From an uncultured Chloroflexia bacterium (GTDB taxonomy: Bacteria; Chloroflexota; Limnocylindria; Limnocylindrales; CSP1-4): a stretch of DNA of 64,000 nucleotides. The notes under the pieces were generated by a model. It had not been told where the DNA came from and ran no database searches. It worked only from the letters and a program-made list of their open reading frames with translations. Below, piece by piece: positions 9,485 to 63,026 of the stretch. The stretch lies in NCBI GenBank assembly GCA_963768655.1, contig CAVYIM010000008.1, positions 33,584 to 97,583 of the forward strand, written 5' to 3'. Both the position numbers and the translations under genes were made by a program. The stretch's first letter is position 1, and each line of letters begins with the position of its first letter.

Positions 9485-9703
9485 GATCGTTCCCCTCTAT
9501 CGGTGTCGATCGACCTGCATCATGAAAGCACAAGACGCGTGAGCAATGTGCACCGGATCCTCATTCCTCGCGGCACGACAGACGCGCCGCCCGAATGACA
9601 CGTTACGACGCCGGCTCGTTCATGGCCAGACCGACTTGCTGTTGCGAGCGTCCAACCCGCCTGTGCGCCGGTCCCGTCGCTGCTATTGCCCGGCGGCGCG
9701 ACC

Positions 9704-33253: not shown

Positions 33254-34030
33254 TCAGGTCGCGCTCAGGACACCCGGCACATCCGAGAGGTTGCGGCAGA
33301 CGTCGAAGCCGAACGAGGCATCCGGGTGCAGGCCTAGACGCAGCGCGGGTCCCCCTACGATGATGCGCTGGGGCGGACTGGGCAGCTCTCTGAGGCGCCC
33401 CTTGACTTCGCGCACCTGTCTCATCTGAGTGGGCAGGGCCACAGAGAACCCGACGGCCTTTGGGCGGACGGAATCCAGGAGGTCCAAGACCTCGCCGGTC
33501 GGAAGGCCAGGCAGAACGGTCAGGGTCGGGATACCGCAGGCGGCGAAGTAGACCTCGGCCATCTGAAGGCCGAGAGTATGGTAGTTGCCCTCAGCGTTGA
33601 CCAGAACCAGTGCCGGAGCAACAGGCTGATCGTTCGCGCTCAGAGTTTCGCTGCGGATGCCCGAGATCAACGCTTCGACCACAGCGCTGATGCGGTGCTC
33701 GCTGTAGACCGTAACCTTGCCCGCAGCCCACGCGTCCCCGACCTGTGCGAGCAACGGCGCCAGCATCGCGAACATCAGATCGAGGGGTCGGATGCCGAGC
33801 CGGCCACTCTCCGCCAGGATCGACGTCACGTTGGCGGGAGCCTCAGCTAGGACTCTTTCCTTCAATCCGCCATAGAAGTCGATGATCGCTTGGAGCTTGG
33901 TCCTATCCGACTGATCGAAGTCGAATGACCGAGACGTGCACGCCGCGCACACGCCGTGGGAGATCCGGTAGTCATCGAACGGCTCGACCTCGTCGATGAA
34001 TCCCTGGCAGTAGGCGCACCATCTAATCAT
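33254..34030 (-). CDS. Cobalamin-binding protein with N-terminal Cys4 metal-binding module
   Basis: CAYC..ISHGVCAAC; Wx9EH (WAAGKVTVYSEH); NYHTLG; GFS and VGG Rossmann motifs. Confidence 0.85.
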   Translation of the reverse strand: MIRWCAYCQGFIDEVEPFDDYRISHGVCAACTSRSFDFDQSDRTKLQAIIDFYGGLKERVLAEAPANVTSILAESGRLGIRPLDLMFAMLAPLLAQVGDAWAAGKVTVYSEHRISAVVEALISGIRSETLSANDQPVAPALVLVNAEGNYHTLGLQMAEVYFAACGIPTLTVLPGLPTGEVLDLLDSVRPKAVGFSVALPTQMRQVREVKGRLRELPSPPQRIIVGGPALRLGLHPDASFGFDVCRNLSDVPGVLSAT

Positions 34031-34434
34031 CGCGAGACCTTCGCTCGGCTCGATGCCAAAGCGTCACGGCCAGAACGGATGTATTCGGATGCCAGCTCCC
34101 GAGCCGGGGGGCTGAGTTCGGCGGACAGTGTTTCGACCATGCAGTCGAGATGCCCGTCGAGCACCAAGCGCTCGAGTCCGACGCCAGTGAGGACGCCGTC
34201 CAGCCACACGAGATATGCCCCGAAACTGTCGGCATCACCAGAGGCGACGGCTTCGCTCAGGAACTGCAGGTTGGACTCCGCGTCCCGGATGGATTTCGCC
34301 CAGCCGGCAGCACCGAGAGACTCCCTCAGCCCGGGGGTTCGACGGAACTGCAACTGGGTCACCAGCGAGGCGAGCGCGATCCTACGCTCAAGGATCTCCT
34401 CGCCGGCCGCGCGGTTGCGCTCTTGGTCAAACAT
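34027..34434 (-). CDS. Small helical protein, globin/phycobiliprotein-like sensor domain
   Basis: KSIRDAESNLQFLSEAV..FGAYLVWLDGVL pattern; ATGA-coupled to the B12 protein. Confidence 0.65.
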   Translation of the reverse strand: MFDQERNRAAGEEILERRIALASLVTQLQFRRTPGLRESLGAAGWAKSIRDAESNLQFLSEAVASGDADSFGAYLVWLDGVLTGVGLERLVLDGHLDCMVETLSAELSPPARELASEYIRSGRDALASSRAKVSR

Positions 34435-34657
34435 CACTCGGGGTGCCGGCTCCGTGCGTAATTGGGCAACGAGGTGGCCCGAACACATCGCGTCTGAGAG
34501 GCGATCGAAGAGACAATACGGCGAACTGATGGGCTTTGCCTCGCCCCGGTTTCTCGCCGACCAATCAGGAATGCCGGCACGATGCCCATCCATCGAGTTG
34601 GCATCTCCCGCGTCGGCTTGCCGACGGCTCGGTCGATCACGCTCGGCTGCCCAAGGC

Positions 34658-35750
34658 CTATCCCAGCTCGGCCAGCAGATCCGCGGCAGTCGTACCCGCC
34701 GTGACCCGCAGACGTGGGACCTGGAAGCGGTCGGACCACGTCTCGTAAGCCTCGATCTCCTCGCTCGTGCGAGGCGCGGGGCTCGCACTGGGCCTTGGTG
34801 CCGCGGCGGGGATCTCGATCGCCAGAGGACCCTCCAGCACCGCGATCCGAAGTTCCCCGCAAGCCTCGACTGCTGCGGTGGCCCGGGCGTTCACACTGCC
34901 GTATGGATAGGCCAGTGAGTCGGGCCAGACACCCGTGACCTGGGCGATCCGTGCGGCTGCGGCATCGATCTCGTAGGTCAGGCTCGCACCCTTTCGAGCG
35001 GAGAGCCGGTAATGGTCCATGGTGTGGTCGCCGATGTCGTCACCGGCGGCCACCAGGGCCTGCAGCTGCGCGGAACTCAGGAAGTCAGGCCGATCGATCC
35101 GGCCGGCGATGACGTAGTAAGTCGCGACGAAGCCATGGCTCTGGAGGATTGGCAGCGCATACGTGTAGCCGTCGTCCCAGCCGTCGTCGATCGTGATCAC
35201 GAACGTCCGAGCCGGCGGCTTGATGTGTGCCAGCAGGTCGTTCGCGAGGGTCGCCATCGTGATGGTGTGCCAGCCCGCCTGCTGCAGGCCAGTGAGTTGA
35301 GTGGAGAAGTCGCTCGGGGGCACGACCAGCCCTCGAATTCGAGTTGCCCGCGTCGGCAACCGGCACGATCCGGTGGTACATCAGTATCGGCACGTGAAGA
35401 GTGAAGGAGCTTGTCCTGCCGCCAGCCGGAGCGGTCACGGGCGTGGCGCTCGGGACTGAGGCCGGGTCGCAGCTGTCCACCACAGGAAGGCTGCCGGCCA
35501 GAGGCAGTGGCGTGGCGGGCGGTGCCGTGGCGGGCGGTGCCGTGACCTCGGGACTCGGGGACGGGCTGCCGGTCGGGCCCGCGGTCGGGCTCGGGCTGGC
35601 GACCATCGGCAACGGCACGCTCACGGTGGCTGGCGGCGGCGAGGCTGTGTGGCCCCCCGGGTTTGCGCTGCCACAGGCAGCGGCGGCCAGCAGCACGACC
35701 AATGCACAACCGCCAACGCTGACCCGGCAACGCCGGCGCACGCGCGCCAT
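34658..35750 (-). pseudogene. Polysaccharide deacetylase lipoprotein with one frameshift near 35337
   Basis: Lipobox and VPILMYHRI in one frame; ITIDDGW, HTMDH, LAYPYG in another; removing one base joins them. Confidence 0.8.
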
Positions 35751-36191: not shown

Positions 36192-37529
36192 TCAGGCAGC
36201 CGTCGGGAAACCCACCCACACGGCGAGGCCATCCAGGCTGAGGAGCACGACTCCGGTTGGACCGAGGGCCGCGAGCCACATCGTCGATTGGGACGAAGCC
36301 GAGTAGATCGGGACGTCGCCCGTCTGGCTCAGGACCCTGACCGCCAGGTCGTCTCCGACCGTGGCGAGCGTTACGGATCCGTCCTCGCTTTCTCCCACAA
36401 CCAGGCCACGCCGCCCGTCAGTGAGGATGACACCGCCGGGGTAGAGCGCTGATGCAAGCAGGCTCGACGGCGCGGCGACGAGCTTCCAGGTGCGGCCGTC
36501 GTTGGTAAGCCAGACTTGCTGGCTGACAAAGCCGTTCTCGCAACCGACCGCCACCAGGGCGTGATCGCTGATCTTGATCAGAGAGGTAGACGCGAGACTT
36601 GACGTCGCGGCGCTGGGCAACGGGCTCTGCGTCCAGATGGTGGCGTCCGCGGACCACCAAACGGAAGGCGTGGCCGGCTTCTCGCTGCACTGGAGGCCCG
36701 TTACTCCGGAGATGATGTATCCGTTCGCGAAGCGGGAGGCTGCGTTCACGGTTGACTTGCCAGCGACGTTGCTCGCCAGAGGGGCCTGAGTCCAGGTCAG
36801 GCCGTCCTTTGAAAGCCACACGGCCTGGGTCTTGCCGTCCTTCAGCGTGCCCGAGGCGATGAAGCCGGTCGAGCCGCCGCCGACCCAGTAGACATTCGCA
36901 GGCGCGAAATCGGCTGAGGGCTGGACGAGACTCCACGTCAACCCATCGGTTGAGGTCCACAGAACGTGGATCGTTGCCGGCTCCCGTGCGCATACCTGAG
37001 TGCGAACCTGGCGGCCCAGGGCCAGCAATCCAGACGGACCCTCGACGACCTGGTCGACATCCACCTCGGGCTCCAAACCGCCCAGGTTCATCGGCCGGCC
37101 TGCTGTCCAGTGCAGACCGTCGGCCGACGACGTGGAGACCACCGTGTCGCCCCCCGGTGCGACGTGGTCGATGGCCGCGCGGAAGCCAACATAGCCGCGG
37201 CTCCAGCCGTAGAGGCTGACGGTGACGCTTACGTCCGTCCCGGCGGCAGGTGTCTGCGGGAACGCCGGGCCGGCGGCAGTCCAGCGGATGCCGGTCCACT
37301 CGCCGGTGGGGGCCGCGCCGATGCTGGGCATAGACGAAGGCGTTCCGCTTGGAACGGTCGACGCGGCCGTCGATGCGCCACCGGACGGGGACGGCACTAC
37401 GCTCGATGGGGATTGCGAGGCCGCTGCGCCGCTGCAGCCTGCGAGGAGGCCAGTGGCCGCGAGGCCGACCAGCACGCGCTTGAAACACCCCACGAGCTGT
37501 TCCCACTGGCTGGATGCGATGGAACTCAT
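36192..37529 (-). CDS. Lipoprotein with BNR/Asp-box-like repeats
   Basis: LAGC lipobox, Ser/Pro linker, repeated WxSxDGxTW. Confidence 0.82.
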   Translation of the reverse strand: MSSIASSQWEQLVGCFKRVLVGLAATGLLAGCSGAAASQSPSSVVPSPSGGASTAASTVPSGTPSSMPSIGAAPTGEWTGIRWTAAGPAFPQTPAAGTDVSVTVSLYGWSRGYVGFRAAIDHVAPGGDTVVSTSSADGLHWTAGRPMNLGGLEPEVDVDQVVEGPSGLLALGRQVRTQVCAREPATIHVLWTSTDGLTWSLVQPSADFAPANVYWVGGGSTGFIASGTLKDGKTQAVWLSKDGLTWTQAPLASNVAGKSTVNAASRFANGYIISGVTGLQCSEKPATPSVWWSADATIWTQSPLPSAATSSLASTSLIKISDHALVAVGCENGFVSQQVWLTNDGRTWKLVAAPSSLLASALYPGGVILTDGRRGLVVGESEDGSVTLATVGDDLAVRVLSQTGDVPIYSASSQSTMWLAALGPTGVVLLSLDGLAVWVGFPTAA

Positions 37530-37956
37530 AGCGTGTCCCCCTTGGTCCAGCGGCACTTGGTTGATCGCGCCCGAAGGGCGCGCCGTGGACGCACGGGCAG
37601 GGCGTCCTGTGATTGCGAACGCGCGTCGACCCGCCGGGCCATGCATCAACGCGTCCGCGATCCGACACGGGGCGAGAGGAAAGGCGGCTGCACTTCCCGT
37701 TCCGCGGACTATCGTCCCGCCAGCGAACGCGCTGGCGCTCAGAAAGGCGGGCTGAAGCGGGCCACCCGAGGCCGCCGACCCGTGGCAGGCCTCGCGCGCC
37801 AACGATCGTCGCAAGAGATGACGTGGTCACCCTGCCACGCGACTGGACCCCAACGCACCTTCAGCGAGGACGCGCCCGATCTTCGCGAACTCCTCGAGCG
37901 GTCGGTCGGGCCCGACGGAACGTGGGTCTCGATCGCGGGTCGCGTCCGCTCCGAGA

Positions 37957-39093: not shown

Positions 39094-40071
39094 TCAGCCT
39101 TGTATGGGATCGGGTGACTCGGATAGCTCCAGAACGGCGTCCCACAGCCGACGCCGGTCCGCGGCCTTGAGCCTGGTGCTCGGAAGGCGGTCGAAAGGTC
39201 GCGGCCGCCGGTCGAGGTGGAGCTTGCCGCCTCCTGCACCAGGGCGCGTCGCGAGCCAGACGATCGTATCTGCCCCTTCGGCCGGGGTCCGCAGAATTGG
39301 CCGCATGCGTCGGTAGAATCCCGGCAGGGCCTCCGCCAGGCCCGGAGTGTCCGCCCAGCCCGGATGCATGGCGTTCACGGCGACGTCGATTCCGGCCCCG
39401 GCAAGCCGCCGGTCCCACTCCCGCATCAGTGCCACCTGGATCCGCTTGGCCCGTGCATAGGCTCGCGCCCCGGACCACGGCTCTCGTTCGTACTGCAGGT
39501 CGTCGAGGCGAACGGGCTGGGTGTACATACCGCCTGAGGTCACCGACACGATGCGCGACCCGGGTGTGCGGGCCATCAGCGGCAGCAGCGCAGCCTCGAG
39601 CGCGAACGGGCCCACAACGAGCGTCGCCAGAGTTGACTCGATGCCGTCCGGCCCGACGGTGCGTTCCGAGAACATGGCTCCGGCGTTGTCGATGAGCACG
39701 TCGAGCCGCGGTTCGGTGGCGAGAACCCGGCCCGCGGCCGCCCTCACCGAGTTCAGTGAGCCCATGTCCGCCGTCACTGAGGGGAAGCGATCCTCGCCGT
39801 GTTCTCGAACCAGCGAATCTCGAAGCGCGGCCAGCCGCTCCGGGTTTCGGCCGACGAGGACCACGCGAGCTCCGACCGCTGCCAGAGCTTCGGTGGCGGC
39901 TCGCCCTAACCCGGAGGTCGGGCCTGTGACGAGGACGGTCCGTCCCGCCATGGAGTTCGCCGCGGGCAAATCCCATCCGAACAGCCGTCGACGGAGAACT
40001 AGTCCTGGGCGACCGAAGCTGCCGACGACCGTCAGCTCGAGCGTCCAGTCGAGAAGGTTCCTCGGATCCAA
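39094..40071 (-). CDS. SDR oxidoreductase (DHRS12-like)
   Basis: TGPTSGLG, VTSGGMY, YARAK, MHPGWADTPG. Confidence 0.9.
   Translation of the reverse strand: MDPRNLLDWTLELTVVGSFGRPGLVLRRRLFGWDLPAANSMAGRTVLVTGPTSGLGRAATEALAAVGARVVLVGRNPERLAALRDSLVREHGEDRFPSVTADMGSLNSVRAAAGRVLATEPRLDVLIDNAGAMFSERTVGPDGIESTLATLVVGPFALEAALLPLMARTPGSRIVSVTSGGMYTQPVRLDDLQYEREPWSGARAYARAKRIQVALMREWDRRLAGAGIDVAVNAMHPGWADTPGLAEALPGFYRRMRPILRTPAEGADTIVWLATRPGAGGGKLHLDRRPRPFDRLPSTRLKAADRRRLWDAVLELSESPDPIQG
39973..39999 (+). promoter_or_regulatory. SigK-type ECF promoter candidate upstream of SRPBCC gene
   Basis: CCATCCG-N16-GAAC, embedded antisense in the SDR gene. Confidence 0.5.
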
Positions 40072-40122
40072 TTTGAACCTCGTTATGCCCGGTCCCGGAA
40101 GGGACCCTACAGGAGATCATCG

Positions 40123-40617
40123 ATGACCAGGCTTCATGAAGAGATCGAAACTGCGCTGCCGTTGGATGTCGCGTTTCCGTTTGTTGCGGATTTCGCAAAC
40201 TCCAGTCGGTGGGACCCGGGCGTCAAGTCGTCCGAGCGCCTGGACCCGGGGCCGCTGGCGGTCGGCGCGCGTTACGCGCTCGTCGTTCGGATGGGCGGCC
40301 GGTTCGCCCCGATGGAATACCGGGTTTCAACGCTGGAGCCCCTGAACCGCGTAGTGCTCACGGGTTCGGGCTCGGGAGTCTCGGCCGTCGATGAGATCCG
40401 GTTCGAGCGATCGGGGACGGGCACCCACATCGACTACACGGCCGACATCCGGCTGGGCGGACTGCTGAGGTTGGTCCAGCCCTTTCTCGGCGGCTCGTTC
40501 CGGAAGATCGCGAAGGACGCGCTCGCGGGGATGGAGAAGACGCTGAGCGAGATGGCGGCACGAGAGACCGTGGGCTCGCAGGCGATAGCGACGGCGGCCC
40601 GGATCGCGGGCTCGTGA
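40123..40617 (+). CDS. SRPBCC/START-like family protein
   Basis: FVADFANSSRWDPGV; AGGAG RBS. Confidence 0.88.
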   Translation: MTRLHEEIETALPLDVAFPFVADFANSSRWDPGVKSSERLDPGPLAVGARYALVVRMGGRFAPMEYRVSTLEPLNRVVLTGSGSGVSAVDEIRFERSGTGTHIDYTADIRLGGLLRLVQPFLGGSFRKIAKDALAGMEKTLSEMAARETVGSQAIATAARIAGS

Positions 40618-40636
40618 TCTTCCCGCCGCTCCTGCC

Positions 40637-40663
40637 CCATCCGTTTTCGAGTTCGCTTCGAAC
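40637..40663 (+). promoter_or_regulatory. SigK-type ECF promoter
   Basis: CCATCCG-N15-CGAAC ending 8 bp before the ATG. Confidence 0.8.
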
Positions 40664-40671
40664 AGTGGCCG

Positions 40672-41952
40672 ATGGACAGAATGAAGGTTGCCGTAGTCGG
40701 TTCCGGGATCAGCGGCCTGACCGCTGCGTACGTGCTGAACGGCGAGCACGACGTCCGGTTGTTCGAGCGAGAGCCCGCCGCCGGCGGGCATACCGCCACC
40801 GTCTCGATTCAGACTGATCGCGGACGCGTGGCGGTGGACACCGGTTTCATCGTCTACAACGAAAAGACGTATCCGCTGTTCACGCGGCTCCTGGCCGAGC
40901 TGGGCGTCGAGACGCAGCCCAGCGACATGTCCTTCAGCTGCACCTGCGGCGCCTGCGGCATCGAATTCAGCAGCCGCGGAGCCGGCGGTTGGTTCCCCCG
41001 GCCAGGAACGGTCCTTCGGGCCTCGCATTGGAACATGATCCGCGAGGTCCTGCGCTTCTACGCCGACGCCCGCCAGCGCCTCGACTCAGGCGCCAACACG
41101 CGCGACACCCTGGGTGACTTCCTGGATCGCGGCCACTACGGCTCGGCCTTTCGGAACCACTTCATCGTTCCGGTAACGTCCGCGGTCTGGTCCACGGCCG
41201 CCGATCGCATTCTCGACTTCCCGGCCGACTACCTGCTCCACTTCCTCGACAACCACGGCCTCATCGGCTATCCGAGCAAGGTCAAGTGGCGAGTCGTGAA
41301 GGGCGGCTCCAACGAATACGTGAAGAAGATCCTCGCCACGCTGCCCGAAGGCGCCGTCCGCCTCGATAGCGGCGTCGTGTCGGTCACGCGGGACGGCGAC
41401 GGTGCCACGGTGACCACGACCGACGGCACCGCGGAGCGGTTCGACGCGGTGGTGATGGCCACTCACGCAGACGATGCCCTTGCGCTGCTACGCGACGCGG
41501 ACCTCGCGGAACGGAACGCGCTCTCGGGCTTCGACTACTCGCGCAACCAGGTCGTGCTCCACACCGACGAGCGGATCATGCCGAAGGCGCGGCGGGCGTG
41601 GGCGTCCTGGAATGTGGACGTGGCCGACTGCCGCCGCCCGGGCGGCGAGGTGACCATGACCTACCACATGAACCGGTTGCAGTCGCTGCCCGGCCCCGAA
41701 CAGTACTTCGTGTCGCTGAACCCGGGGAGGGAGATCGCAGCCGACCGCGTGATCGTCGCCCGCGAGTTCAGCCACCCGATGTACACGTTCCGGACGCTCG
41801 AGGCGCAGGGAGACCTGCGCGCCATCCAGGGACGGAATCGGACCTGGTACGCGGGTGCGCACCTCGGCTACGGCTTTCACGAGGACGGCTGCCGCTCCGG
41901 CTACGAAGCCGCGGCGATGGTGTCGACCTCGATCGAGGAGCTGGCGGCATGA
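40672..41952 (+). CDS. FAD-dependent oxidoreductase, UfaD/Rv0449c-like
   Basis: [38 protein letters not shown]. Confidence 0.92.
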
Positions 41953-42740
41953 GGTCGCACCTGCTGGCGGGCAAGGTCTACCATCGCCGTTCGAGCCCGT
42001 TCGTCTACGAGCTCGAGCACGATGTCTGGTACTTCGCGCTGGACCTGGACGAGATCGACGAGGTCGCCTCGAAGATCAGGTTGGTGAGCCGTAACCGGCG
42101 CAACGTCCTGACCTTCCGCGACGACGACCACATGCTGCCTCCGGCTGCGTCGCTCGCCGAATCCGTGCGGGAGCACCTCGCGAGCCACGGCGTAGACCCG
42201 GCGGACTGGCGTATCACCCTCGTCACGAACCTGCGGATCCTGGGACACGTCTTCAACCCCGCCAGCTTCTACCTGTGCCGCGATGGTGGCGGCGATCTTC
42301 GCACCGTGATCGTGGAGGTCAACAACACCCACGGCGAGCGGCGGCTGTATACGCTATGGCCGGAGCGGCGAGGTGACGAGCACAGGGCCTCGATGGCGAA
42401 GGACTTCTACGTGTCACCCTTCATCGACATGGACGCCGGCTACACGGTCCGGACGTGGGATCGCCCGAAAGAGCTGCGGATCGCGATCAACGAGACTGAG
42501 CACGGCTCGCCCGTGCTGACGGCCAGCCTTGTCCTGCGGCGCCTCCCGGCGACCAATCGCGCCGTGGGACGCCTTCTCGTCCGTTACCCATTCGTGACTC
42601 TCAAGACCATCGGCGCGATCTACTGGCACGCCCTGCGCCTGTGGCTGAAGGGGGCGGCCTTCCACCGCCACGGGACGGCGAGGAGCCACGCAACGAGTGT
42701 CGCCGGTTCCCTGCCACCCGGTCCGGAGACGGCTCGATGA
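41949..42740 (+). CDS. DUF1365 protein, UfaO/Rv0448c-like
   Basis: [44 protein letters not shown]. Confidence 0.92.
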
Positions 42741-43996
42741 GCGCTCGAATCGCTGCGCCCGCCCGAGTCTCCGAACGGCGGGGCCTGGCTCGGTTGCCGG
42801 GTCTCGAAGCCGCTGCCTGGCGAGCGGCTCTGACGATGGCCTCGCGCATCCGGATCGGCTGCCTGACAGTTGTTGAACCTGACGGCCGCCGCCACGTGTA
42901 CGGCGACAATTCCTCCGATCGCCGGGCCGAGATACGTGTCCATGACAGGGCCGCGGCTCTGCGCGTGGTCATGAACGGCGACACCGGTGCCGGAGAGGCT
43001 TACATGGACGGGCAGTGGTCGAGCCCCGACCTGGCCGCTCTTCTCTCGCTGGCCGCGCTCAATCGCGAAGCCCTGGACCTGTCGGGCGGGCTGTGGCACG
43101 CCATCACGCAGCTGCCGCGGACTCTCCTGCATCGATCGCGGCGCAATACCGTCTCGGGCAGCCGACGCAACATCGCCGCCCACTACGACCTCGGCAACGA
43201 CTTCTACCGCCTCTTCCTCGACGAGACCATGACCTACTCGTGCGCCGTGTTCGAGTCGCCGGATCAATCGCTCGCCGAGGCCCAGCGGAACAAGTACCGC
43301 CGCATCGCCGAAGGCGCCGGCCTGCGACCCGGGATGCACGTCCTGGAGATCGGCTCGGGCTGGGGTGGCTTCGCGATCTACGCCGCGGGCGAGCTCGGCT
43401 GCCGCGTGACGTCGGTCACGATCTCGAAGGCCCAGCGGGACCTGGCGGTCGAGCGGGTCAGGGCCGCCGGACTGCAGGATCTCGTGGACATCCAGCTGCG
43501 AGACTACCGCGAGATCGAGGGCACCTTCGACGCCATCGTGTCTATCGAGATGCTCGAGGCCGTGGGCGCCGAGTACTACGAGGCCTTCTTCGAGGCCTGC
43601 GATCGAGCGCTGAAGCCGGGCGGCCGACTGAGCCTGCAGACGATCGCGTTTCCGGATGTTGCCTACGAACGGCAGCGGCGAGGGGCCAACTGGATCCAGC
43701 TCTACATATTCCCGGGCGGCCTTCTGCCGTCCCTTTCGGTCATCGAGAGGTCGCTTCATCGGACCCGGCTCGTGGTCTCCGGCGTGACCGACATCGCGTC
43801 GAGCTACGTGCGCACCCTGCAGGAGTGGCGTAGCCGCTTCATGGGGAACCTCGATGCGGTCAAGGCACAGGGCTTCGACGAGCGTTTCATCAGGATGTGG
43901 GAGTACTACCTGGCGATCAGCGAAGCCGGCTTCGCCACCGGCCTGACGCAGGACTTCGAGCTCGTCTTGGAGAAGAAGCGCGGCCTCGAGGGCTGA
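42737..43996 (+). CDS. Cyclopropane-fatty-acid synthase family methyltransferase, UfaM/UfaA1-like
   Basis: NIAAHYDLGNDFY, LEIGSGWGG, SIEMLEAVG, YIFPGG, RMWEYYL. Confidence 0.94.
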   Translation: MSARIAAPARVSERRGLARLPGLEAAAWRAALTMASRIRIGCLTVVEPDGRRHVYGDNSSDRRAEIRVHDRAAALRVVMNGDTGAGEAYMDGQWSSPDLAALLSLAALNREALDLSGGLWHAITQLPRTLLHRSRRNTVSGSRRNIAAHYDLGNDFYRLFLDETMTYSCAVFESPDQSLAEAQRNKYRRIAEGAGLRPGMHVLEIGSGWGGFAIYAAGELGCRVTSVTISKAQRDLAVERVRAAGLQDLVDIQLRDYREIEGTFDAIVSIEMLEAVGAEYYEAFFEACDRALKPGGRLSLQTIAFPDVAYERQRRGANWIQLYIFPGGLLPSLSVIERSLHRTRLVVSGVTDIASSYVRTLQEWRSRFMGNLDAVKAQGFDERFIRMWEYYLAISEAGFATGLTQDFELVLEKKRGLEG

Positions 43997-44020
43997 CCGC
44001 CGAACGGCTTCTGGCGCCGA

Positions 44021-44734
44021 TCAGCGGCGATCGACATCCTCCGGGCCCGGGCTCAGCGAGCGGGCGAACCGCTGCGCGTCGGCCAGTGAGTGGCAGACCA
44101 GGCTGGCCCCCGCGAGCTCCGCGATGGCGGCGATCCCGTTCCCGCCGACCATGAGCGGCAACTCGGCCACGCTCCCGCCTGCGGCTCGGAGCGCATCGAC
44201 CGTCCGGCGGAGCGCTTCCAGCCGATCGGCCGTTCCGATGGACAGGGCCACCAGGGCCACTTCCCGTGCGGATATGAAGGTCACGAGGTCGTCGGCGGGG
44301 ACGTTCGCCCCGAGGTTCTCGACATGCCAGCCGTCGTCCTCGAGGACCTGGGCGAGGCAGGCGAGTCCGGCGACATGCTGTTCCATCTCCGGCGCCGCGA
44401 GCACGGCCGTGGGTCCTATGCGCGACTCGGGAGTCTCGGGTGGCCTCACGCGCGACAGCGCCTGGTTGAGCGCGACGCTGGCCAGGTGCTCGACCGATAC
44501 CGACCACTGGCCCTCCTGCCAGCGAGTTCCAACCAGCTCCATCGCCGGTCGCACTACCTCGTCGTAGACCTCGGCCCTGGAGCGTTCGGCCAGGGCCTGG
44601 CTCATGACCCAGGCTGCCATGTCGTCGTCGCCATCGGCCAGGAGGGAAGCCAGGAACTCGGGCGCCGCGATGTCTCCGTCCGGCGCAATCTGGGCCGCAA
44701 CCTTGGGGAGTTCCGGCATCGGCGAGTCATTCAC
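44021..44734 (-). CDS. Stand-alone cobalamin-binding protein with CarH-type signature, no DNA-binding domain (alternative start 44719)
   Basis: Wx9EH (WQEGQWSVSVEH), ExHxxG (EQHVAG), LGANVP, ALS, VGG. Confidence 0.88.
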   Translation of the reverse strand: MNDSPMPELPKVAAQIAPDGDIAAPEFLASLLADGDDDMAAWVMSQALAERSRAEVYDEVVRPAMELVGTRWQEGQWSVSVEHLASVALNQALSRVRPPETPESRIGPTAVLAAPEMEQHVAGLACLAQVLEDDGWHVENLGANVPADDLVTFISAREVALVALSIGTADRLEALRRTVDALRAAGGSVAELPLMVGGNGIAAIAELAGASLVCHSLADAQRFARSLSPGPEDVDRR

Positions 44735-45495
44735 TATCGGGATCCTCCTGCCGCTGCCGCGGGCTCGGCATCGAAGGGTGCCGTCACGAACTGGGCTATC
44801 TTCAATGCCTGTTCGATGATCGAACCAAACCGGATGGCGCATCGAACCAAACCGGATTGCGTTCGACCGCCCGGGCCCTCCGCTGCTCGCCTGCGATCTC
44901 CCGTGCCGGGGACGCCGCGCGACTTGCCGCCGTCGCCTGGCGACTCGCCTTCAGACAGATCCGTCTCCAGAGACGCTCGGAGTCGAAGCAAGGCCGTCCG
45001 GATGCGTGTCTTCGCTGTCCCGAGCGGGATCCCCTCGCGCTCGGCGACCTCCACGTGGGTCAGCCCCTGGATGAAGGCAAGGCTGAGCGCCCGCCGCTGA
45101 TCCTCGGGCAGGCGGCTTATCGCGTCGTTCAGTCGCCGGCGGCGAAGCCCCCGCCAGACCTCGTCGTGGACGTCGTCCGGAGCCTCATACAGCTCGAGGT
45201 CCACCTCGGCCGTCTGGCGCTTGGCGGCCGCCTCGCGGCGCACGGCGTCGATTGCCTTGTAGCGGGCCAGCGTGAACATCCACGGTCCAAGGGAGCCACG
45301 GGCGGGGTCGAACCTGAGCGGGTCCTGCCACACGGCCATGAAGGCGTCCTGGACCGCTTCCTGGGAAAGCCGCTCGGATTGGGTCACGCGCATGGCCACG
45401 GAGTACATGCCCGGCGCGAAACGCTCGTGGAGGATCTCGATGGCGTGCTGGTCGCCGGCAGATATCCGTGCCAGCAGTTCCGTGTCCTCCACCAT
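44734..45495 (-). CDS. ECF sigma factor, SigK-like, with long C-terminal extension
   Basis: VQDAFMAVW, FDPARGS, ARYKAIDAVR, IPLGTAKTRIR. Confidence 0.92.
   Translation of the reverse strand: MVEDTELLARISAGDQHAIEILHERFAPGMYSVAMRVTQSERLSQEAVQDAFMAVWQDPLRFDPARGSLGPWMFTLARYKAIDAVRREAAAKRQTAEVDLELYEAPDDVHDEVWRGLRRRRLNDAISRLPEDQRRALSLAFIQGLTHVEVAEREGIPLGTAKTRIRTALLRLRASLETDLSEGESPGDGGKSRGVPGTGDRRRAAEGPGGRTQSGLVRCAIRFGSIIEQALKIAQFVTAPFDAEPAAAAGGSR
44811..44837 (-). promoter_or_regulatory. SigK-type ECF promoter upstream of the B12 protein, inside the sigma 3' end
   Basis: Minus strand CCATCCG-N15-CGAAC. Confidence 0.75.
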
Positions 45496-45622
45496 CGCCT
45501 CGCAGCGGGCGGCAGTGATAGGCCGCCGTATCGCAACCGAGTATATCGGGCGGTCCGGGTCCCGGTCGGTGCCCCTCTCGGGACGCAGCAAGCGACCCGG
45601 ACGGCGCATTTCCGCTCGGACG

Positions 45623-45649
45623 CCATCCGAATGGACACATCTCTCGAAC
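45623..45649 (+). promoter_or_regulatory. SigK-type ECF promoter upstream of ABC exporter
   Basis: CCATCCG-N15-CGAAC, 30 bp before the ATG. Confidence 0.8.
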
Positions 45650-45679
45650 TGGGAGTAACCAACCCAGTGAGGAACACGC

Positions 45680-46645
45680 ATGGACCCACATTACTCGCCC
45701 GGCATAGTCGTAGACGATCTGATCAAGAGATACGCCCCCGACGCTCCGCCGGCTGTAGACGGCCTTTCATTCGAGGTTCGACCGGGAGAGATCTACGGCC
45801 TTCTGGGGCCAAACGGTTCCGGCAAGTCGACCACGATTGGTGTCCTGGCCACGCTGCTCCTGCCTACGTCAGGGACGGTGCGCGTCGCGGGCTTTGAGGT
45901 CGTCGGGCAGGCCGTCGAGGTTCGGCGGCGAATCGGCGTTGCCCTCCAGGAGACCGGTGTCGACTCCGCCGCCACCGGACGCGACCTGATCGCCAGGCAT
46001 GCCCGGCTCCTCGGGACCTCCCGATCGGAGGCCGGACGGCGTGCCGATCGGCTGCTCCGCGAGTTCGATCTCACCGACGCCGCCGAGAAACGGCTCAAGG
46101 CCTATTCGGGGGGCATGCGAAGGCGCCTCGACCTGGCGCTCGCCCTGGTGGGTCGACCCAGCGTGGTCTTCCTCGACGAGCCGACCACAGGTCTCGATCC
46201 AATCTCCCGCCAGGCGCTGTGGGAGCGCATGGCACGCCTCCGCGCCGATGGCGTGACCGTGCTGCTGACCACGCAGTACCTCGAGGAGGCGGACGCGCTC
46301 GCAGACCGGATAGGAATCGTCGCCGCCGGACGCTTGCGCGTCGAGGGTACCGCCGACGAGCTCAAGCGGAGCATAGGCGGTGACGTGCTGACGATCGACG
46401 TCCGGCCGGACCTCGAGGAACGTGCGGCGACGCTGCTGGGCGGCCGGGGCGAAGGGCGTGGCCGAGTTGCCCTGGAAGTTCGCGACGGCGGTGCCGCAGT
46501 GCCGCGCACCCTGGCGACCCTCACCGCGGCCGGGATCGAACCCGTGAGCGTGGCTCTTGCTCGGCCCACGCTGGACGACGTCTTCCGCCGCGTGGTCGGC
46601 GGCCATCTCATCGAGAAGTCAGAGCCCCAGGAGGTGGCCGCATGA
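45680..46645 (+). CDS. DrrA-like ABC ATP-binding protein
   Basis: GPNGSGKS, YSGGMRRRLDLA, LDEPTTGLDP, TTQYLEEAD. Confidence 0.93.
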   Translation: MDPHYSPGIVVDDLIKRYAPDAPPAVDGLSFEVRPGEIYGLLGPNGSGKSTTIGVLATLLLPTSGTVRVAGFEVVGQAVEVRRRIGVALQETGVDSAATGRDLIARHARLLGTSRSEAGRRADRLLREFDLTDAAEKRLKAYSGGMRRRLDLALALVGRPSVVFLDEPTTGLDPISRQALWERMARLRADGVTVLLTTQYLEEADALADRIGIVAAGRLRVEGTADELKRSIGGDVLTIDVRPDLEERAATLLGGRGEGRGRVALEVRDGGAAVPRTLATLTAAGIEPVSVALARPTLDDVFRRVVGGHLIEKSEPQEVAA

Positions 46646-47457
46646 ACGCGACCGTCAGCCGGTTACCGGAAACGGCGCTGCTGCCCGCATCGCCCTCCTT
46701 CGTCACACAGGTCGGCATCCTGCTCGCGCGCCTGCTGCGCCAGCTGGTCGTATCCCCGACGACCTACATCAATCTCGCCATCAGTCTGTTCTTCCTCGCC
46801 GTGTATACGGGTGCGTTCGGCGCCTCGCCCGGGTTCGAGAAGCTCATCGGGGCGAACTTCCTCACGTTCATCCTGCCGGTGTCGATCGTGAACGCATCCC
46901 TTGCCGGCTCGGTCGCCGGGCAACTCCTGGTCACGGATCTCGAGACCGGGTACCTACGGCGTCTTCAGACAATGCCCATAAGCCGAGTGGCAATTGTTCT
47001 TGCGCCGATGATCGTGGGCGCCATTCTGGTTCTCGCCCAGGCCGCTCTGGTCGTGGGTGTGGGCATGCTCCTGGGGGCGACTTCCGCTACGGGCGCGGCT
47101 GGGCTGTTGGTCGTGCTCGCGCTGTCGCTGTTATGGGGCATGGCGTTTGCCGGCTATGCCGTGGCCACCGGTCTGCTGGCCGGTAACGCCGCGGCGGCTC
47201 AGGCGGCCACGTTCGTATTCTTTCCGCTCGTCTTCCTGGCGCCGACCTTCATGCCGCGCGCGCAGCTTCAGGGCTGGCTTCAGGTGGCCGCCGCCTTCAA
47301 CCCGACGACGTACGTTCTGGAGTCGATGCGTGGCGTCCTGATCAGCGGCTGGAGCCCGGGGCAACTGACATCCGGCTTCGCCGTCATCGGCGGGCTGTGT
47401 GTCGCGGCCACTCTCTGGGCGACGCGCGTGGCACGGCGAACGACAAGCCGACGCTGA
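46642..47457 (+). CDS. ABC-2 (DrrB-like) permease
   Basis: ATGA overlap; DLETGYLRRL..PISR, NPTTY. Confidence 0.92.
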   Translation: MNATVSRLPETALLPASPSFVTQVGILLARLLRQLVVSPTTYINLAISLFFLAVYTGAFGASPGFEKLIGANFLTFILPVSIVNASLAGSVAGQLLVTDLETGYLRRLQTMPISRVAIVLAPMIVGAILVLAQAALVVGVGMLLGATSATGAAGLLVVLALSLLWGMAFAGYAVATGLLAGNAAAAQAATFVFFPLVFLAPTFMPRAQLQGWLQVAAAFNPTTYVLESMRGVLISGWSPGQLTSGFAVIGGLCVAATLWATRVARRTTSRR

Positions 47458-48210: not shown

Positions 48211-48885
48211 TTACTTGGCGAGCAGCTTCGCCTTCTGCGTGGCGAACTCGGCGTCGGTCAGGATCCCCCTGTCCCTCAGAGTGGCGAGCTTTGTCAGTTC
48301 GTCGGCCACGTCCGGTTCCGCCGTTGTGGCCTGCGTATCCCTCAATCGGGCCGTCATCGCCTGTATGTTTTCCAGAGTCGCGTCGACATCGTCGCTCGAT
48401 CCCGCCGACCTGGCGTTTGGCGCCTGGCGCACTCGCTTGTTGTACTGCTGGGCGTAGGCGACGGGATCGATCGTCACGCGCTTGTGGTTGAACTTGGCGA
48501 CTCGCACCGGAATCGTCTCCCCCTGGGAGAGACTGGCGCATATGTACAGCATCGTCTTGTAGGGCTGCCAGCCGGGAACGGTCACTTCCAGGCCATACTT
48601 CCACACGTACGGCGCGTTCCAGGCGAACTCGCCTTCCTGCACGACCGTATTCGTCTGGTCGGCCGACAGGACGAGCGCCGTACCGGGCACACCATTCCTG
48701 GCGAGGCGCCTGTCGCCGCCACGGATCACCGCCATCGACAGGTACATCGCGTACACGAACGCGGCCCAGGTCACGACCTGTTCGATGACGAGCCCCAGCA
48801 CACCGAAGAGCAGCGCCGGCAGCATCAGGACACAGCCGGCGACGAAGATCACCCAGCACCAGACTTGCATCCGCCACGCGTTCAT
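48211..48885 (-). CDS. Membrane protein with C-terminal SHOCT domain
   Basis: Two TM helices; ELTKLATLRDRGILTDAEFATQKAKLL; AAGGAG RBS. Confidence 0.88.
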   Translation of the reverse strand: MNAWRMQVWCWVIFVAGCVLMLPALLFGVLGLVIEQVVTWAAFVYAMYLSMAVIRGGDRRLARNGVPGTALVLSADQTNTVVQEGEFAWNAPYVWKYGLEVTVPGWQPYKTMLYICASLSQGETIPVRVAKFNHKRVTIDPVAYAQQYNKRVRQAPNARSAGSSDDVDATLENIQAMTARLRDTQATTAEPDVADELTKLATLRDRGILTDAEFATQKAKLLAK

Positions 48886-49052
48886 CTCAGAACTCCTTCC
48901 GGCGTCGACACCGCAAAGATACGGTTTGGGCGAAGCGGACCCCGCACGCAGCTCGCTCGGACGATCGTAGCAAACGGACAGGCACGTCAGGCGGTCATTG
49001 GTCAGAGTCGTTCGACGCCCGACGGACGTCCTTTCCCGGCCGCGGTCATGGC

Positions 49053-49158
49053 TCACCCAGCAGGCTCGCCGGTCTTACGCATCGGTTCGGCTGGAACGCC
49101 CACGACCTTGACGTCGGCGGCCACATCCTTGACGGCTACCGCGCCCATCCCAATCTGA
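49053..49158 (-). pseudogene. 3' remnant of hexapeptide-repeat acetyltransferase
   Basis: IGMGAVAVKDVAADVKVVGVPA* without the rest of the gene. Confidence 0.55.
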
Positions 49159-50940: not shown

Positions 50941-52449
50941 TCAGGAGATAGTCCGGAGGCTCGGCCACATCGTGGTCCAAGGCGCCCGTAGGCCGGTGCA
51001 CACTGAGACGGGCTCTCCTTGCTCGCCGTTCTCGATGCCGAGCCCATTGTCGATCGTTGCGACGACGTGACAGCCGACGAAGAACTGGCCCGGATTGGCC
51101 GGTCTCCAGTCACCCACGTGCACCACGACGGTGAGGTCGGCCGGCGGGGGTCCCCACGACCAGAACGAGTTGTGGCCCGAGTAGACCGGCGGGAGTCCCG
51201 TGCCGAGTAGTTCGAGCGGGCTCGCTTCGCTGTAGTCGTTGGTCAGGATCACCGCGTGGGCTCGTTCGTCTGCGGGCAGTGCGTCCACCACGTGCTCCAC
51301 CGTTGCGACGAACTGCGGCCAGCCGACGGTGTTCGCAACATCGGGGACCGTGGCGGGCAGCGTCGTCTTGGCATACGTAGCCAGCGGCAGGATCGGCAGG
51401 GTCAGGTAGGCGATGAGGGCACCGGAGAGCACCGCGGCAGTCGCGAAGCTCCCGGCCTTGAGGCGGAAGTGGCCACGGGCCAGCCAGCGGTCGAGGAGGA
51501 TCGCGCCGGCCGCCATGAACACGGGCGCGGAGCCGATCGCGTAGTAGGCCTTGCCGCCGCTGATCACGACGAGGGCGAGTCCAACAAGGGCGGCGATCCC
51601 GATTGCGCGCCACGGCTCCCCTGCCTTCGACCGCAGGACCCACAGCAGACCCGCCGCGCTCACCGGGAAGAGGAACGGGCCCGTGAAGAGCCAGAGCAGC
51701 GGCACGATCTGGCCGCGGTTGTCGGCGGCGTATTGGGAGATGGCCTGCGCCATCGTGAGTTGCGGCCAGCCGTTCGTCGCTTCCCAGACAAGGTTCGGAG
51801 CCCAGATCAGGAGCGCGATCCCGATGGCCGCCCACGCCCAGCGTGAGCGCACGATATCCCAGCGTCGGGCGAGAACCAGTCCGACTGCCAGACCCGCTCC
51901 CAGGAACAGGATCGTGTCCTTGTTCTCGAGGCCGATCCCGGTCACCAGGCCGACGGCCAGCCAGAGGCGCCCGTCACCGCCCGCGAGCAGCTTCACGAGC
52001 AGCCACAGGACGATCGCCCAGACGAGCAGGTCGGGCTCGGTCGTAGTGTCGAGATGCCCTGCGCCGAGATAGCCAGACAGGGCGGCCGTGATCGCCGCGA
52101 GGCTCTGCGCCCGCCGCGAGCCGCCGAGGTCCCGCGCGATGAGCGCGACGAGGATCATCACGAGTGCCATCTCGAGCGCGGGCAGCAGCCGGATGGCCGT
52201 GGGCGAAACCCCGAACAAGGCCACCGACGCGGCCGAGAGTAGCGGCGTGAGGGGCGGCTGGTCGACGTAGCCAAGAGCAGAATGTTGGCCCGCGACGATG
52301 TAGTACATCTCGTCGCCGTGGAAGCCGTAGGCGCCCGACACGACCATCAGCCCGACGAACATTACGCCCGCAATTGCGAGCACGGGCCGGGGAACGGCGA
52401 ACGTCGAGAAGCGACGGTTGGATGGGTGCACGGCAACCGAGGTTGTCAT
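50941..52449 (-). CDS. GT-C (family 39/ArnT-like) glycosyltransferase
   Basis: YGFHGDEMYY, GYVDQPPL, many TM helices, YSGHNSFWSWG. Confidence 0.88.
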   Translation of the reverse strand: MTTSVAVHPSNRRFSTFAVPRPVLAIAGVMFVGLMVVSGAYGFHGDEMYYIVAGQHSALGYVDQPPLTPLLSAASVALFGVSPTAIRLLPALEMALVMILVALIARDLGGSRRAQSLAAITAALSGYLGAGHLDTTTEPDLLVWAIVLWLLVKLLAGGDGRLWLAVGLVTGIGLENKDTILFLGAGLAVGLVLARRWDIVRSRWAWAAIGIALLIWAPNLVWEATNGWPQLTMAQAISQYAADNRGQIVPLLWLFTGPFLFPVSAAGLLWVLRSKAGEPWRAIGIAALVGLALVVISGGKAYYAIGSAPVFMAAGAILLDRWLARGHFRLKAGSFATAAVLSGALIAYLTLPILPLATYAKTTLPATVPDVANTVGWPQFVATVEHVVDALPADERAHAVILTNDYSEASPLELLGTGLPPVYSGHNSFWSWGPPPADLTVVVHVGDWRPANPGQFFVGCHVVATIDNGLGIENGEQGEPVSVCTGLRAPWTTMWPSLRTIS

Positions 52450-62669: not shown

Positions 62670-63026
62670 CTACGGAATTAGCGGCTGACCAAGCTGGGCG
62701 AGAAGCTGGTTCACGGCGTTGCGGCACTTGCTCCGTGGGAGAGCGCCCACGAAATGCCCCGACTCAACCGACAGTTCGCCCGGGATAAGGAATGGGATTC
62801 GGTTGAACCATGCGGTGTACATCCATGCCTCGATGCGGGCGTTCGGCCCTAGCTGACGGACAACACAGAACCATGCACCGCCCATCGCCCGCTGGCATCG
62901 ATAACGCCGACTTCCATCCGGCTCGACGAACACGGGTTGGAAGCCATTCGCAGACGCCCATGCGTCGGCTGCGGGCGCGACAGGGAATGGAACTTGAAAG
63001 TCCCGAATGGTCCGACTATTTCCCAC
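62670..63026 (-). CDS. Hypothetical protein
   Basis: GTG after AGGGG, overlaps upstream gene end. Confidence 0.65.
   Translation of the reverse strand: MGNSRTIRDFQVPFPVAPAADAWASANGFQPVFVEPDGSRRYRCQRAMGGAWFCVVRQLGPNARIEAWMYTAWFNRIPFLIPGELSVESGHFVGALPRSKCRNAVNQLLAQLGQPLIP

Follow-up and report, generated by a model that had tools for sequence, protein, structure and literature searches.

A stand-alone cobalamin-binding protein in the anti-sigma position behind a SigK-like sigma factor: a candidate light-responsive regulon in Limnocylindria

Known B12 photoreceptors are DNA-binding repressors (CarH/LitR), antirepressors (AerR) or enzyme fusions (photocobilins), and for extracytoplasmic function (ECF) sigma factors the known restraints are anti-sigma domains, partner switching, phosphorylation and extensions of the factor itself. 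The subject of this report is a block of nine genes at positions 39094-47457 of a 64-kb stretch of Chloroflexota DNA (contig CAVYIM010000008.1; the whole stretch is referred to as the window), in which a stand-alone cobalamin (B12)-binding protein is encoded directly behind a SigK-like ECF sigma factor, in the slot of the anti-sigma factor RskA. The sigma-B12 gene pair is conserved among relatives, adjacent B12 genes and RskA are distributed in a complementary way, and three sites of one promoter-like motif stand before genes of the block. This arrangement suggests an as yet undescribed mode of gene switching by light: the block may be a compact photo-oxidative-stress regulon, mobile as a unit, in which the B12 protein serves as a light-released antagonist of the sigma factor in RskA's place, a reading to which we give an even chance. 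The organism is known solely as a metagenome-assembled genome (3.37 Mb, 9 contigs, 88.6% complete).

Several described systems resemble parts of this locus. SigK is the best model for the sigma factor of the window, and in the SigK-RskA system of Mycobacterium tuberculosis (Rv0445c/Rv0444c), as apparently here, the regulon is small and local; here, however, a cobalamin-binding protein stands in RskA's place with no RskA in the operon, and the redox cysteine pair of M. tuberculosis SigK is absent, since the sigma core of the window contains no cysteines. The neighbours of M. tuberculosis sigK, Rv0449c to Rv0447c, we take to be oxidoreductase, DUF1365 and cyclopropane fatty acid (CFA)-type proteins, and the motif found here, CCATCC-N16-CGAAC, presumably resembles the mycobacterial SigK site. 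M. tuberculosis sigK is autoregulated through the Rv0449c promoter, and the signal to which SigK-RskA responds is given as unknown (PMC7509140). Light induces the mpt70/83 orthologs of Mycobacterium kansasii, which carry putative SigK sites (PMC9861118), and the photo-oxidative RpoE-ChrR pair of Rhodobacter capsulatus has been noted as SigK-RskA-like (PMC7074977).

The RpoE-ChrR/ufa system (RSP1091-1087, RSP2144) also combines an ECF sigma factor with a desaturase-like protein that binds flavin adenine dinucleotide (FAD), a DUF1365 protein, a CFA-type methylase, a short-chain dehydrogenase/reductase (SDR) and a small protein. Its sigma factor is of the RpoE type and is paired with ChrR, a zinc anti-sigma factor with a cupin domain, whereas the sigma factor here is of the SigK type without ChrR; its input is singlet oxygen, whereas the input proposed here is the B12 chromophore. 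In Rhodobacter sphaeroides the singlet-oxygen regulon of RpoE-ChrR includes UfaD (FAD/NAD-binding and phytoene-desaturase-like) and UfaO (DUF1365), and in Rhodopseudomonas palustris the contiguous genes RPA2571-2570-2569 (ufaD-ufaO-ufaM) are necessary and sufficient for formation of the furan fatty acid (FuFA) 9M5-FuFA (PMC7380195).

Among photoreceptors, CarH/LitR (Thermus thermophilus, Myxococcus xanthus, Streptomyces) shares with the B12 protein the same two-domain module, including W-x9-EH and the lower-ligand histidine, and controls photoprotective genes, as is proposed here. CarH/LitR acts on an operator through its MerR DNA-binding domain, whereas the protein here lacks MerR and its proposed target is a sigma factor. 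AerR/PpaA, the antirepressors of CrtJ/PpsR, and SasPcob (8J2W/8J2X) likewise have no DNA-binding domain and act by protein contacts; photocobilins carry a bilin domain, unlike the B12 protein, for which we propose an ECF sigma factor as the partner. The cobalamin-binding domain (CBD) of a photocobilin was shown to be light-active, and stand-alone photocobilins were proposed to work via protein-protein contacts (PMC10979010); CBDs are also found as dark ligand sensors, of which HaAI-2E binds only hydroxocobalamin (PMC11796333). Full-text literature searches, whose coverage did not include the supplementary neighbourhood networks of PMC11796333 and PMC10979010, turned up no account in which an ECF sigma factor has a cobalamin-binding protein for a partner, and the available portions of these two papers mention no ECF sigma partner.

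The sigma-B12 gene pair and its promoter-like sites

The original prediction described one block holding an SDR, an SRPBCC protein, an FAD oxidoreductase, a DUF1365 protein, a CFA-type methylase, a B12 protein, a sigma factor and an ATP-binding cassette (ABC) exporter, and a Pfam search of the window proteins confirms all nine genes within 39094-47457. The sigma gene (44734-45495, minus strand) encodes 253 aa with Sigma-70 regions 2 and 4 only (Pfam Sigma70_r2/r4/ECF: PF04542, PF08281, PF04545, PF07638). Its designation as SigK-like is upheld in that SigK (NF007228) is the best NCBIfam model, albeit at 148.2 bits and thus under the 226-bit cut-off. A cysteine-free core (residues 1 to ~180) is followed by a non-conserved C-terminal tail of ~70 aa. 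This tail was considered as an auto-inhibitory extension and rejected: it is absent outside the genus, and in locus L028 its frame contains three stops though the DNA is conserved, so that it is better understood as read-through across the B12 promoter than as a regulatory extension.

The B12 gene (44021-44734, minus strand) follows immediately, its GTG start and the TAG stop of the sigma gene having one base in common, with GGAGGA 8 nt before the start. The 237-aa product consists of a four-helix B12-binding_2 domain (PF02607, 7.1e-13) and then a Rossmann B12-binding domain (PF02310, 2.5e-14), both above cut-offs, and Pfam gave no DNA-binding domain and no MerR match. The NCBIfam CarH model covers it at profile positions 86-238 of 274 only (46 bits against a cut-off of 400). 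Its closest PDB relatives are the photocobilin CBD 8j2x (5.3e-18), CarH 5c8a (3.2e-8) and AerR 7te2 (1.3e-7); the 8j2x match spans chain residues 10-178 of 341, and the B12 protein has no globin-like bilin-binding domain. G69xxW72, E82-H83, H120 (the cobalt-ligand histidine) and G142xxxP146 are invariant in all 14 sequences of an alignment with relatives down to 54% identity. The signature of light-responsive CBDs is GxxW, EH, GxxH and GxxxP (PMC11796333), and three of these four elements, GxxW, EH and GxxxP, occur in the window protein. Adenosylcobalamin is plausibly available, since the genome encodes a PduO-type adenosyltransferase; other B12-domain proteins are encoded as well.

The synteny recurs in other genomes. 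Among 5.8 billion proteins searched, 198 relatives of the B12 protein were found, and the best 120 of these 198 measure 215-273 aa, have the same two domains and bear names that are automatic labels only. A scan of one genome per species (185,579 species) returned 112 relatives, and all locus counts given here are based on the best 80 of the 112, nearly all titled Chloroflexi, Chloroflexota or Limnocylindr*, with one Saccharimonadales and one 'uncultured bacterium'. Twenty-seven of the 80 loci are of an adjacent type, at least 56% identical to the window B12 protein, and the ECF sigma gene lies upstream on the same strand in all 26 that have an upstream flank (L048 has none). The FAD oxidoreductase/DUF1365/CFA trio is found within the fetched flanks of 16 of the 27. 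The other 53 loci, at 45-53% identity, make up the sister clade, of a distant type with no ECF gene nearby and no common neighbour, their surroundings including ArsR-type regulators, thioredoxin, DinB, methylmalonyl-CoA mutase and DUF2891. On the single chromosome of genome G049 the sigma and B12 genes are ~55 kb apart, and in four further distant-type genomes they are 40-70 kb apart, as judged by matching contig numbers. Within the genus (41 genomes including that of the window) the sigma ortholog is present in nine genomes and DUF1365 in ten, and eight have both at neighbouring coordinates; the one genome with only the sigma gene and the two with only DUF1365 are all short contigs or incomplete genomes. 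This co-occurrence suggests that the block is gained or lost as a whole. In the congener G008 (L023/L050) the B12 gene is in three pieces and that of the FAD oxidoreductase in four or five, i.e. these are either decaying copies or long-read assembly errors.

The block was also predicted to be tied together by a common promoter motif, and this was borne out. CCATCC-N15-17-CGAA has 3 matches in the window against a shuffle mean of 0.58 (3 of 100 shuffles reached 3), and all three are CCATCC-N16-CGAAC sites inside the block, each upstream of a gene on the same strand; it is highly probable that they are promoters read by this sigma factor. The site before the FAD oxidoreductase gene (40637-40663, plus strand) ends 9-18 nt from the start (ATG 40672 or 40681) and is retained across the genus, in L032 (CCATCC) and, as ACATCC, in L043. 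That before the B12 gene (44811-44837, minus strand) stands 77 nt from the start, within the last 100 nt (the 3' tail) of the sigma open reading frame (ORF), and reads CAATCC-N16-CGAAC in eight congeners. The third (45623-45649, plus strand), 30 nt from the start of the ABC ATPase gene, is kept as CCATCC or CAATCC in L026, L027, L029 and L030, and a similar site precedes the ABC genes of L034, L035 and L036. The looser form [CA]ATCC-N16-CGAAC has 4 matches in the window against 0.15 in mononucleotide shuffles. It has 20 matches in the genome. Fourteen of these fall within called frames and are followed by no gene start, and the three block sites are the only ones in non-coding or tail sequence that precede a gene start; as defined by the motif, the regulon of this genome hardly extends beyond the block. 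Further matches are followed on contig C5 (G000:C5:35042 and C5:372425) by ORFs of 226 and 108 aa, and one at 62774-62799 (minus strand) of the window has no called gene behind it.

A candidate weaker promoter for the SRPBCC gene, CCATCC-N16-AGAAC (39973-39999, plus strand), is located 124 nt upstream, inside the SDR coding region, and is kept in 8 of 10 aligned loci, conservation for which coding constraint may account; L034 and L043 have an intergenic CATCC-N16/17-CGAAC site before SRPBCC instead. No motif-type promoter was found for the SDR gene in this genus. An alignment of five loci shows that the control region between the divergent sigma and ABC genes (45496-45679) has kept the sequence CCGATATACTCG, with a -10-like TATACT, ~40 nt upstream of the sigma start. 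Sigma autoregulation via a weak CCATTC-N16-GAAA site (45609-45634, minus strand) was considered and found no support, the site being unconserved and falling in an indel-rich stretch that is absent from L026 and L029, and neither a full sigma-70 promoter nor an intrinsic terminator was seen near the sigma and B12 genes in a simple scan. The 16-nt sequence TCCGGTTTGGTTCGAT is present as an exact direct repeat at 44819-44834 and 44841-44856 (minus strand, 22-nt period). The repeat overlaps the B12 promoter at its -35 element and spacer and may serve as a binding site for another regulator; most congeners have both copies in recognisable form, and the upstream copy is absent from L028 and L029.

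Complementary distribution of RskA and the adjacent B12 gene

As predicted, neither RskA nor ChrR is adjacent to the sigma gene, Pfam having detected no gene of either type in the block. Among the 26 adjacent-type loci, four (L038, L039, L041 and L047) have a gene between sigma and B12 whose 271-aa product matches RskA_C and, weakly, zf-HC2, two (L040 and L042) have a shortened RskA homolog in the same place, and none was detected in the other 20. The shortened forms (L040 7405-7857, L042 7413-7822) correspond to the first ~137-151 residues, and recall the natural truncation of RskA to 81 residues, or its loss, known in Nocardia (PMC7509140). For the distant type, 52 genomes were searched with the sigma alignment, and RskA was sought by tblastn at 1e-3. 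A clear sigma ortholog (257-294 bits, 51-61% identity) is present in 48 of the 52, at 49 loci, and an RskA homolog lies directly behind it at 41 of these (5/5, 18/22 and 18/22). The adjacent B12 gene and RskA are distributed in a complementary way, with RskA at 6 of 26 adjacent-type against 41 of 49 distant-type loci. The proposal that a different sensor has taken the place of RskA holds in part: the B12 protein does occupy the RskA slot here, but relatives combine B12 with RskA, either in one operon or with the B12 gene tens of kb from sigK-rskA.

A tree of ECF sigma factors was built with 30 rows, in which the adjacent-type loci L025, L028, L029, L035, L036, L042, L048 and L050 were left out and the distant type was represented by its first five orthologs only. 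The 25 orthologs separate from the paralogs (92/95). The window sigma belongs to a clade of 13 rows without RskA (98/97), whose neighbour is a clade of 7 rows with both RskA and B12 (99/99). Since the tree does not resolve how the ortholog group branches at its base, the order of events is not proven.

Proposed action of the B12 protein on the sigma factor

Gene content, motif positions, the synteny kept among relatives and the complementary occurrence of RskA and adjacent B12 genes are all seen directly; from them we infer a mechanism that extends to promoter specificity, sigma-B12 binding and dependence on cofactor and light. The SigK-like sigma factor would read (C/A)(C/A)ATCC-N16-CGAAC promoters, with the ufaD-like/DUF1365/CFA-type operon, the DrrAB-like exporter and the B12 gene as its targets. 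The B12 protein, encoded in the RskA slot and loaded with adenosylcobalamin, would hold the sigma factor inactive in the dark until photolysis of the cofactor by light sets it free, and the sigma-dependent promoter of the B12 gene would then provide negative feedback to reset the switch. That the B12 protein regulates the sigma factor at all seems rather probable; that it does so by direct, light-sensitive binding is nearly an even matter. The most specific form of the proposal, in which a CarH-type adenosylcobalamin protein without a DNA-binding domain is a light-gated anti-sigma factor that binds a SigK-type ECF directly and has displaced RskA in several Limnocylindria lineages, with the cofactor-capping four-helix bundle serving also as the surface for sigma binding, is tentative, its chances falling somewhat short of even. 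If true, a cobalamin photoreceptor as sigma antagonist would join the fields of B12 photoreceptors and ECF sigma factors and would amount to a minimal two-protein, green-light-responsive transcription switch. Furthermore, light sensed via B12 photochemistry would be a physiological input and a candidate signal for SigK-type systems, for which the signal is unknown in mycobacteria (PMC7509140), and the link between photo-oxidative stress and ufaD-ufaO-type lipid genes would be extended to non-phototrophic Chloroflexota.

One complex prediction was made, with sigma residues 1-182, the whole B12 protein and a separate alignment for each. The score was 0.49, against 0.00 for the best of three controls, with runs agreeing in at least 90% of contacts and a partner predicted local distance difference test (pLDDT) of 85, which lends weak support to binding. 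In calibration of the tool, 58 of 80 solved complexes and 2 of 110 mismatched pairs attained the mark, and the passes that scored no higher than 0.60 comprised just 7 of those 80 solved complexes together with both passing mismatches. The prior for sigma-B12 binding comes from the gene position and the RskA distribution.

Several observations weigh against a light-released antagonist. The score of 0.49 lies in the band where, according to the calibration of the tool, passes are wrong more often than right in the absence of a strong prior. No anti-sigma domain, zf-HC2-like or RskA_C, is recognisable in the B12 protein, only the two B12 families being matched at E up to 0.01, and in the GxxH element of the light signature the window protein has M (PEMEQH) where the clade consensus has G (PEGEQH). 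Genome-wide, the 20 matches to the looser motif compare with 4-16 in 10 shuffles, about twice the shuffled expectation; with so small an excess the motif alone is weak and unspecific, and it is the placement of the three sites that counts. An alignment of five loci revealed no conserved ECF-type promoter before the sigma gene. RskA went undetected behind the sigma ortholog in 8 of 49 distant-type loci (L144, L146, L147, L150, L152, L156, L160 and L163), with no clear candidate on ORF inspection of four of the eight, and RskA coexists with an adjacent B12 gene in 4-6 loci, so that its loss is not strictly tied to B12 adjacency. The RskA and B12 counts, moreover, rest on few evolutionary events among related genomes, and the window's own 88.6%-complete genome does contain one RskA_C match, on contig C3.

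An alternative, which we consider unlikely, is that the B12 protein is a light or B12 sensor acting on the sigma factor indirectly, as an anti-anti-sigma factor on an RskA-type factor (here that of C3) or through another partner, in the manner of AerR on CrtJ. The three-gene ECF-RskA-B12 arrangements of L038, L039, L041 and L047 would suit such a role, as would the retention, in most genomes of the class, of sigK-rskA together with an unlinked B12 gene bearing a sigma-type promoter, and the protein-protein contacts proposed for stand-alone photocobilins (PMC10979010). An RskA_C protein is encoded somewhere in all five B12-adjacent genomes tested, as in that of the window; for this reason the presence of an RskA in trans, tried as a discriminating test, proved uninformative. 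The earlier description of the block as a self-contained module is qualified accordingly: the motif regulon does not reach appreciably beyond it, but an RskA in trans may act upon it. The gene of the C3 RskA, however, immediately follows that of an ECF of its own (36% identity to the window sigma), and the C3 RskA itself is only 24-27% identical to the RskA type that accompanies the orthologous sigma factors. Indirect action is also opposed by the 20 of 26 adjacent-type loci without RskA, in which the B12 cofactor residues nevertheless remain invariant and the tight sigma coupling is kept, and, weakly, by the score of the complex prediction relative to its controls.

It is likewise improbable that the B12 protein is an output of the regulon, sequestering or protecting cobalamin under photo-oxidative stress, with the sigma factor controlled by transcription, proteolysis or an unrecognised anti-sigma factor. 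In its favour, a separate sigma-type promoter precedes the B12 gene in the adjacent-type and in the distant-type clade alike. [CA]ATCC-N16-CGAA was sought within 260 nt of the B12 start, with other windows of the same loci as controls, and was found in 16 of 26 adjacent-type loci against 43 of 2004 control windows, which contain other true sites of the same loci (a further point against the antagonist), and in 13 of 53 distant-type loci against 9 of 4236. The B12 gene thus appears often to carry a sigma-type promoter, even where it is unlinked to the sigma gene. The distances of ~55 kb in G049 and 40-70 kb in four other genomes, the lack of an anti-sigma domain and the weak complex prediction are equally compatible with an output. 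A mere output, though, need not occupy the anti-sigma slot, with overlapping stop and start in the window, in 26 of 26 assessable loci of its clade, and the complementary distribution of adjacent B12 and RskA would be unexpected for it. Since anti-sigma genes are typically under the control of their own sigma factor in ECF systems, the sigma-type promoter fits a regulator equally well. That the pair senses the availability or form of cobalamin instead of light, with the holo-protein binding or letting go of the sigma factor as B12 supply dictates and so coupling lipid remodelling or export to cofactor status, is very unlikely: dark ligand sensors such as HaAI-2E (PMC11796333) and the G-to-M change in the GxxH element are in its favour, but the light-signature residues GxxW, EH and GxxxP are invariant, and both the regulon and the neighbours of relatives (ufaD/ufaO-like genes, heliorhodopsin, photolyase) are related to light or singlet oxygen.

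Lipid operon, exporter and light-related neighbours

Reading frames in the window (~67% G+C) were chosen by third-position G+C and then confirmed by Pfam. The putative lipid operon lies on the plus strand and begins with an FAD-dependent amine-oxidase/phytoene-desaturase-like oxidoreductase (UfaD-like; 40672-41952; Amino_oxidase, E 1.9e-24, and NAD_binding_8), followed by a DUF1365 protein (UfaO-like; 41949-42740, true start 41949; E 9.8e-71) and a CMAS/CFA-type S-adenosylmethionine-dependent methyltransferase (UfaM-like by position; 42737-43996, true start 42737; CMAS, E 5.5e-86). Both junctions are ATGA overlaps and the three genes are translationally coupled. The trio had been equated with UfaD/UfaO/UfaM and, compared at the level of Pfam families, it does match R. 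palustris RPA2571-2569 in both families and order. The methyltransferase is the only CMAS gene above cut-off in its genome, and NCBIfam CFA synthase models match it below cut-off. RSP1089, the CFA-like gene within the R. sphaeroides operon, is dispensable for FuFA (PMC7380195), and the role of the methylase here is therefore suggested by the R. palustris arrangement only. Judged from family membership alone, the operon would produce methylated or furan fatty acids of membrane lipids.

The sigma and B12 genes converge on this operon, on the far side of which are two divergently oriented genes. One encodes an SDR-family oxidoreductase of 325 aa (39094-40071, minus strand; adh_short, E 2.1e-26) with a TTG start, a conserved N-terminal extension of ~40 aa and full-length tblastn matches among relatives. 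The other encodes an SRPBCC protein (Polyketide_cyc2, E 6.2e-18; 40123-40617, plus strand), a small lipid- or ligand-binding protein that is syntenic in relatives. Divergent from the sigma gene is a DrrAB-like ABC pair on the plus strand, comprising a DrrA-like ATPase (45680-46645; ABC_tran, E 8.4e-30, and DrrA1-3_C; 298.7 bits with NCBIfam drrA against a cut-off of 312) and a DrrB-like ABC-2 type permease (46642-47457; ABC2_membrane, E 7.1e-19). The flanking genes, a SHOCT-domain protein (48211-49056, minus strand), a protein with a weak BNR-repeat match (36192-37814, minus strand) and a PMT_2 glycosyltransferase (50941-52449, minus strand), have no sign of membership in the block.

Genes related to light accompany the block in a number of relatives. 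A heliorhodopsin gene stands behind the B12 gene in L038-L042 and L047 (at about 8770-9617) and is preceded by CCATCC-N16-CGAA in L039-L042 and L047, which suggests that heliorhodopsin belongs to the regulon of this sigma factor in the latter loci. Heliorhodopsin genes also flank the block in L025, L029, L043 and L050, making ten related loci in total, and in L032 a photolyase gene is behind the B12 gene. In the window's own genome no motif was found upstream of the heliorhodopsin gene (G000:C3:213312-214058), and no photolyase FAD domain was found in the 88.6% of the genome that is represented.

The window also encodes a second stand-alone cobalamin-binding protein, outside the block. Its gene (33254-34030, minus strand; 258 aa) overlaps at its start by 4 nt the stop of an upstream ORF (34027-34788, minus strand) that has no Pfam or PDB match. 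The protein has an N-terminal CxxC...CxxC, W-x9-EH and the ligand histidine, and its closest solved relatives are the CBDs of CarH (3.4e-9).

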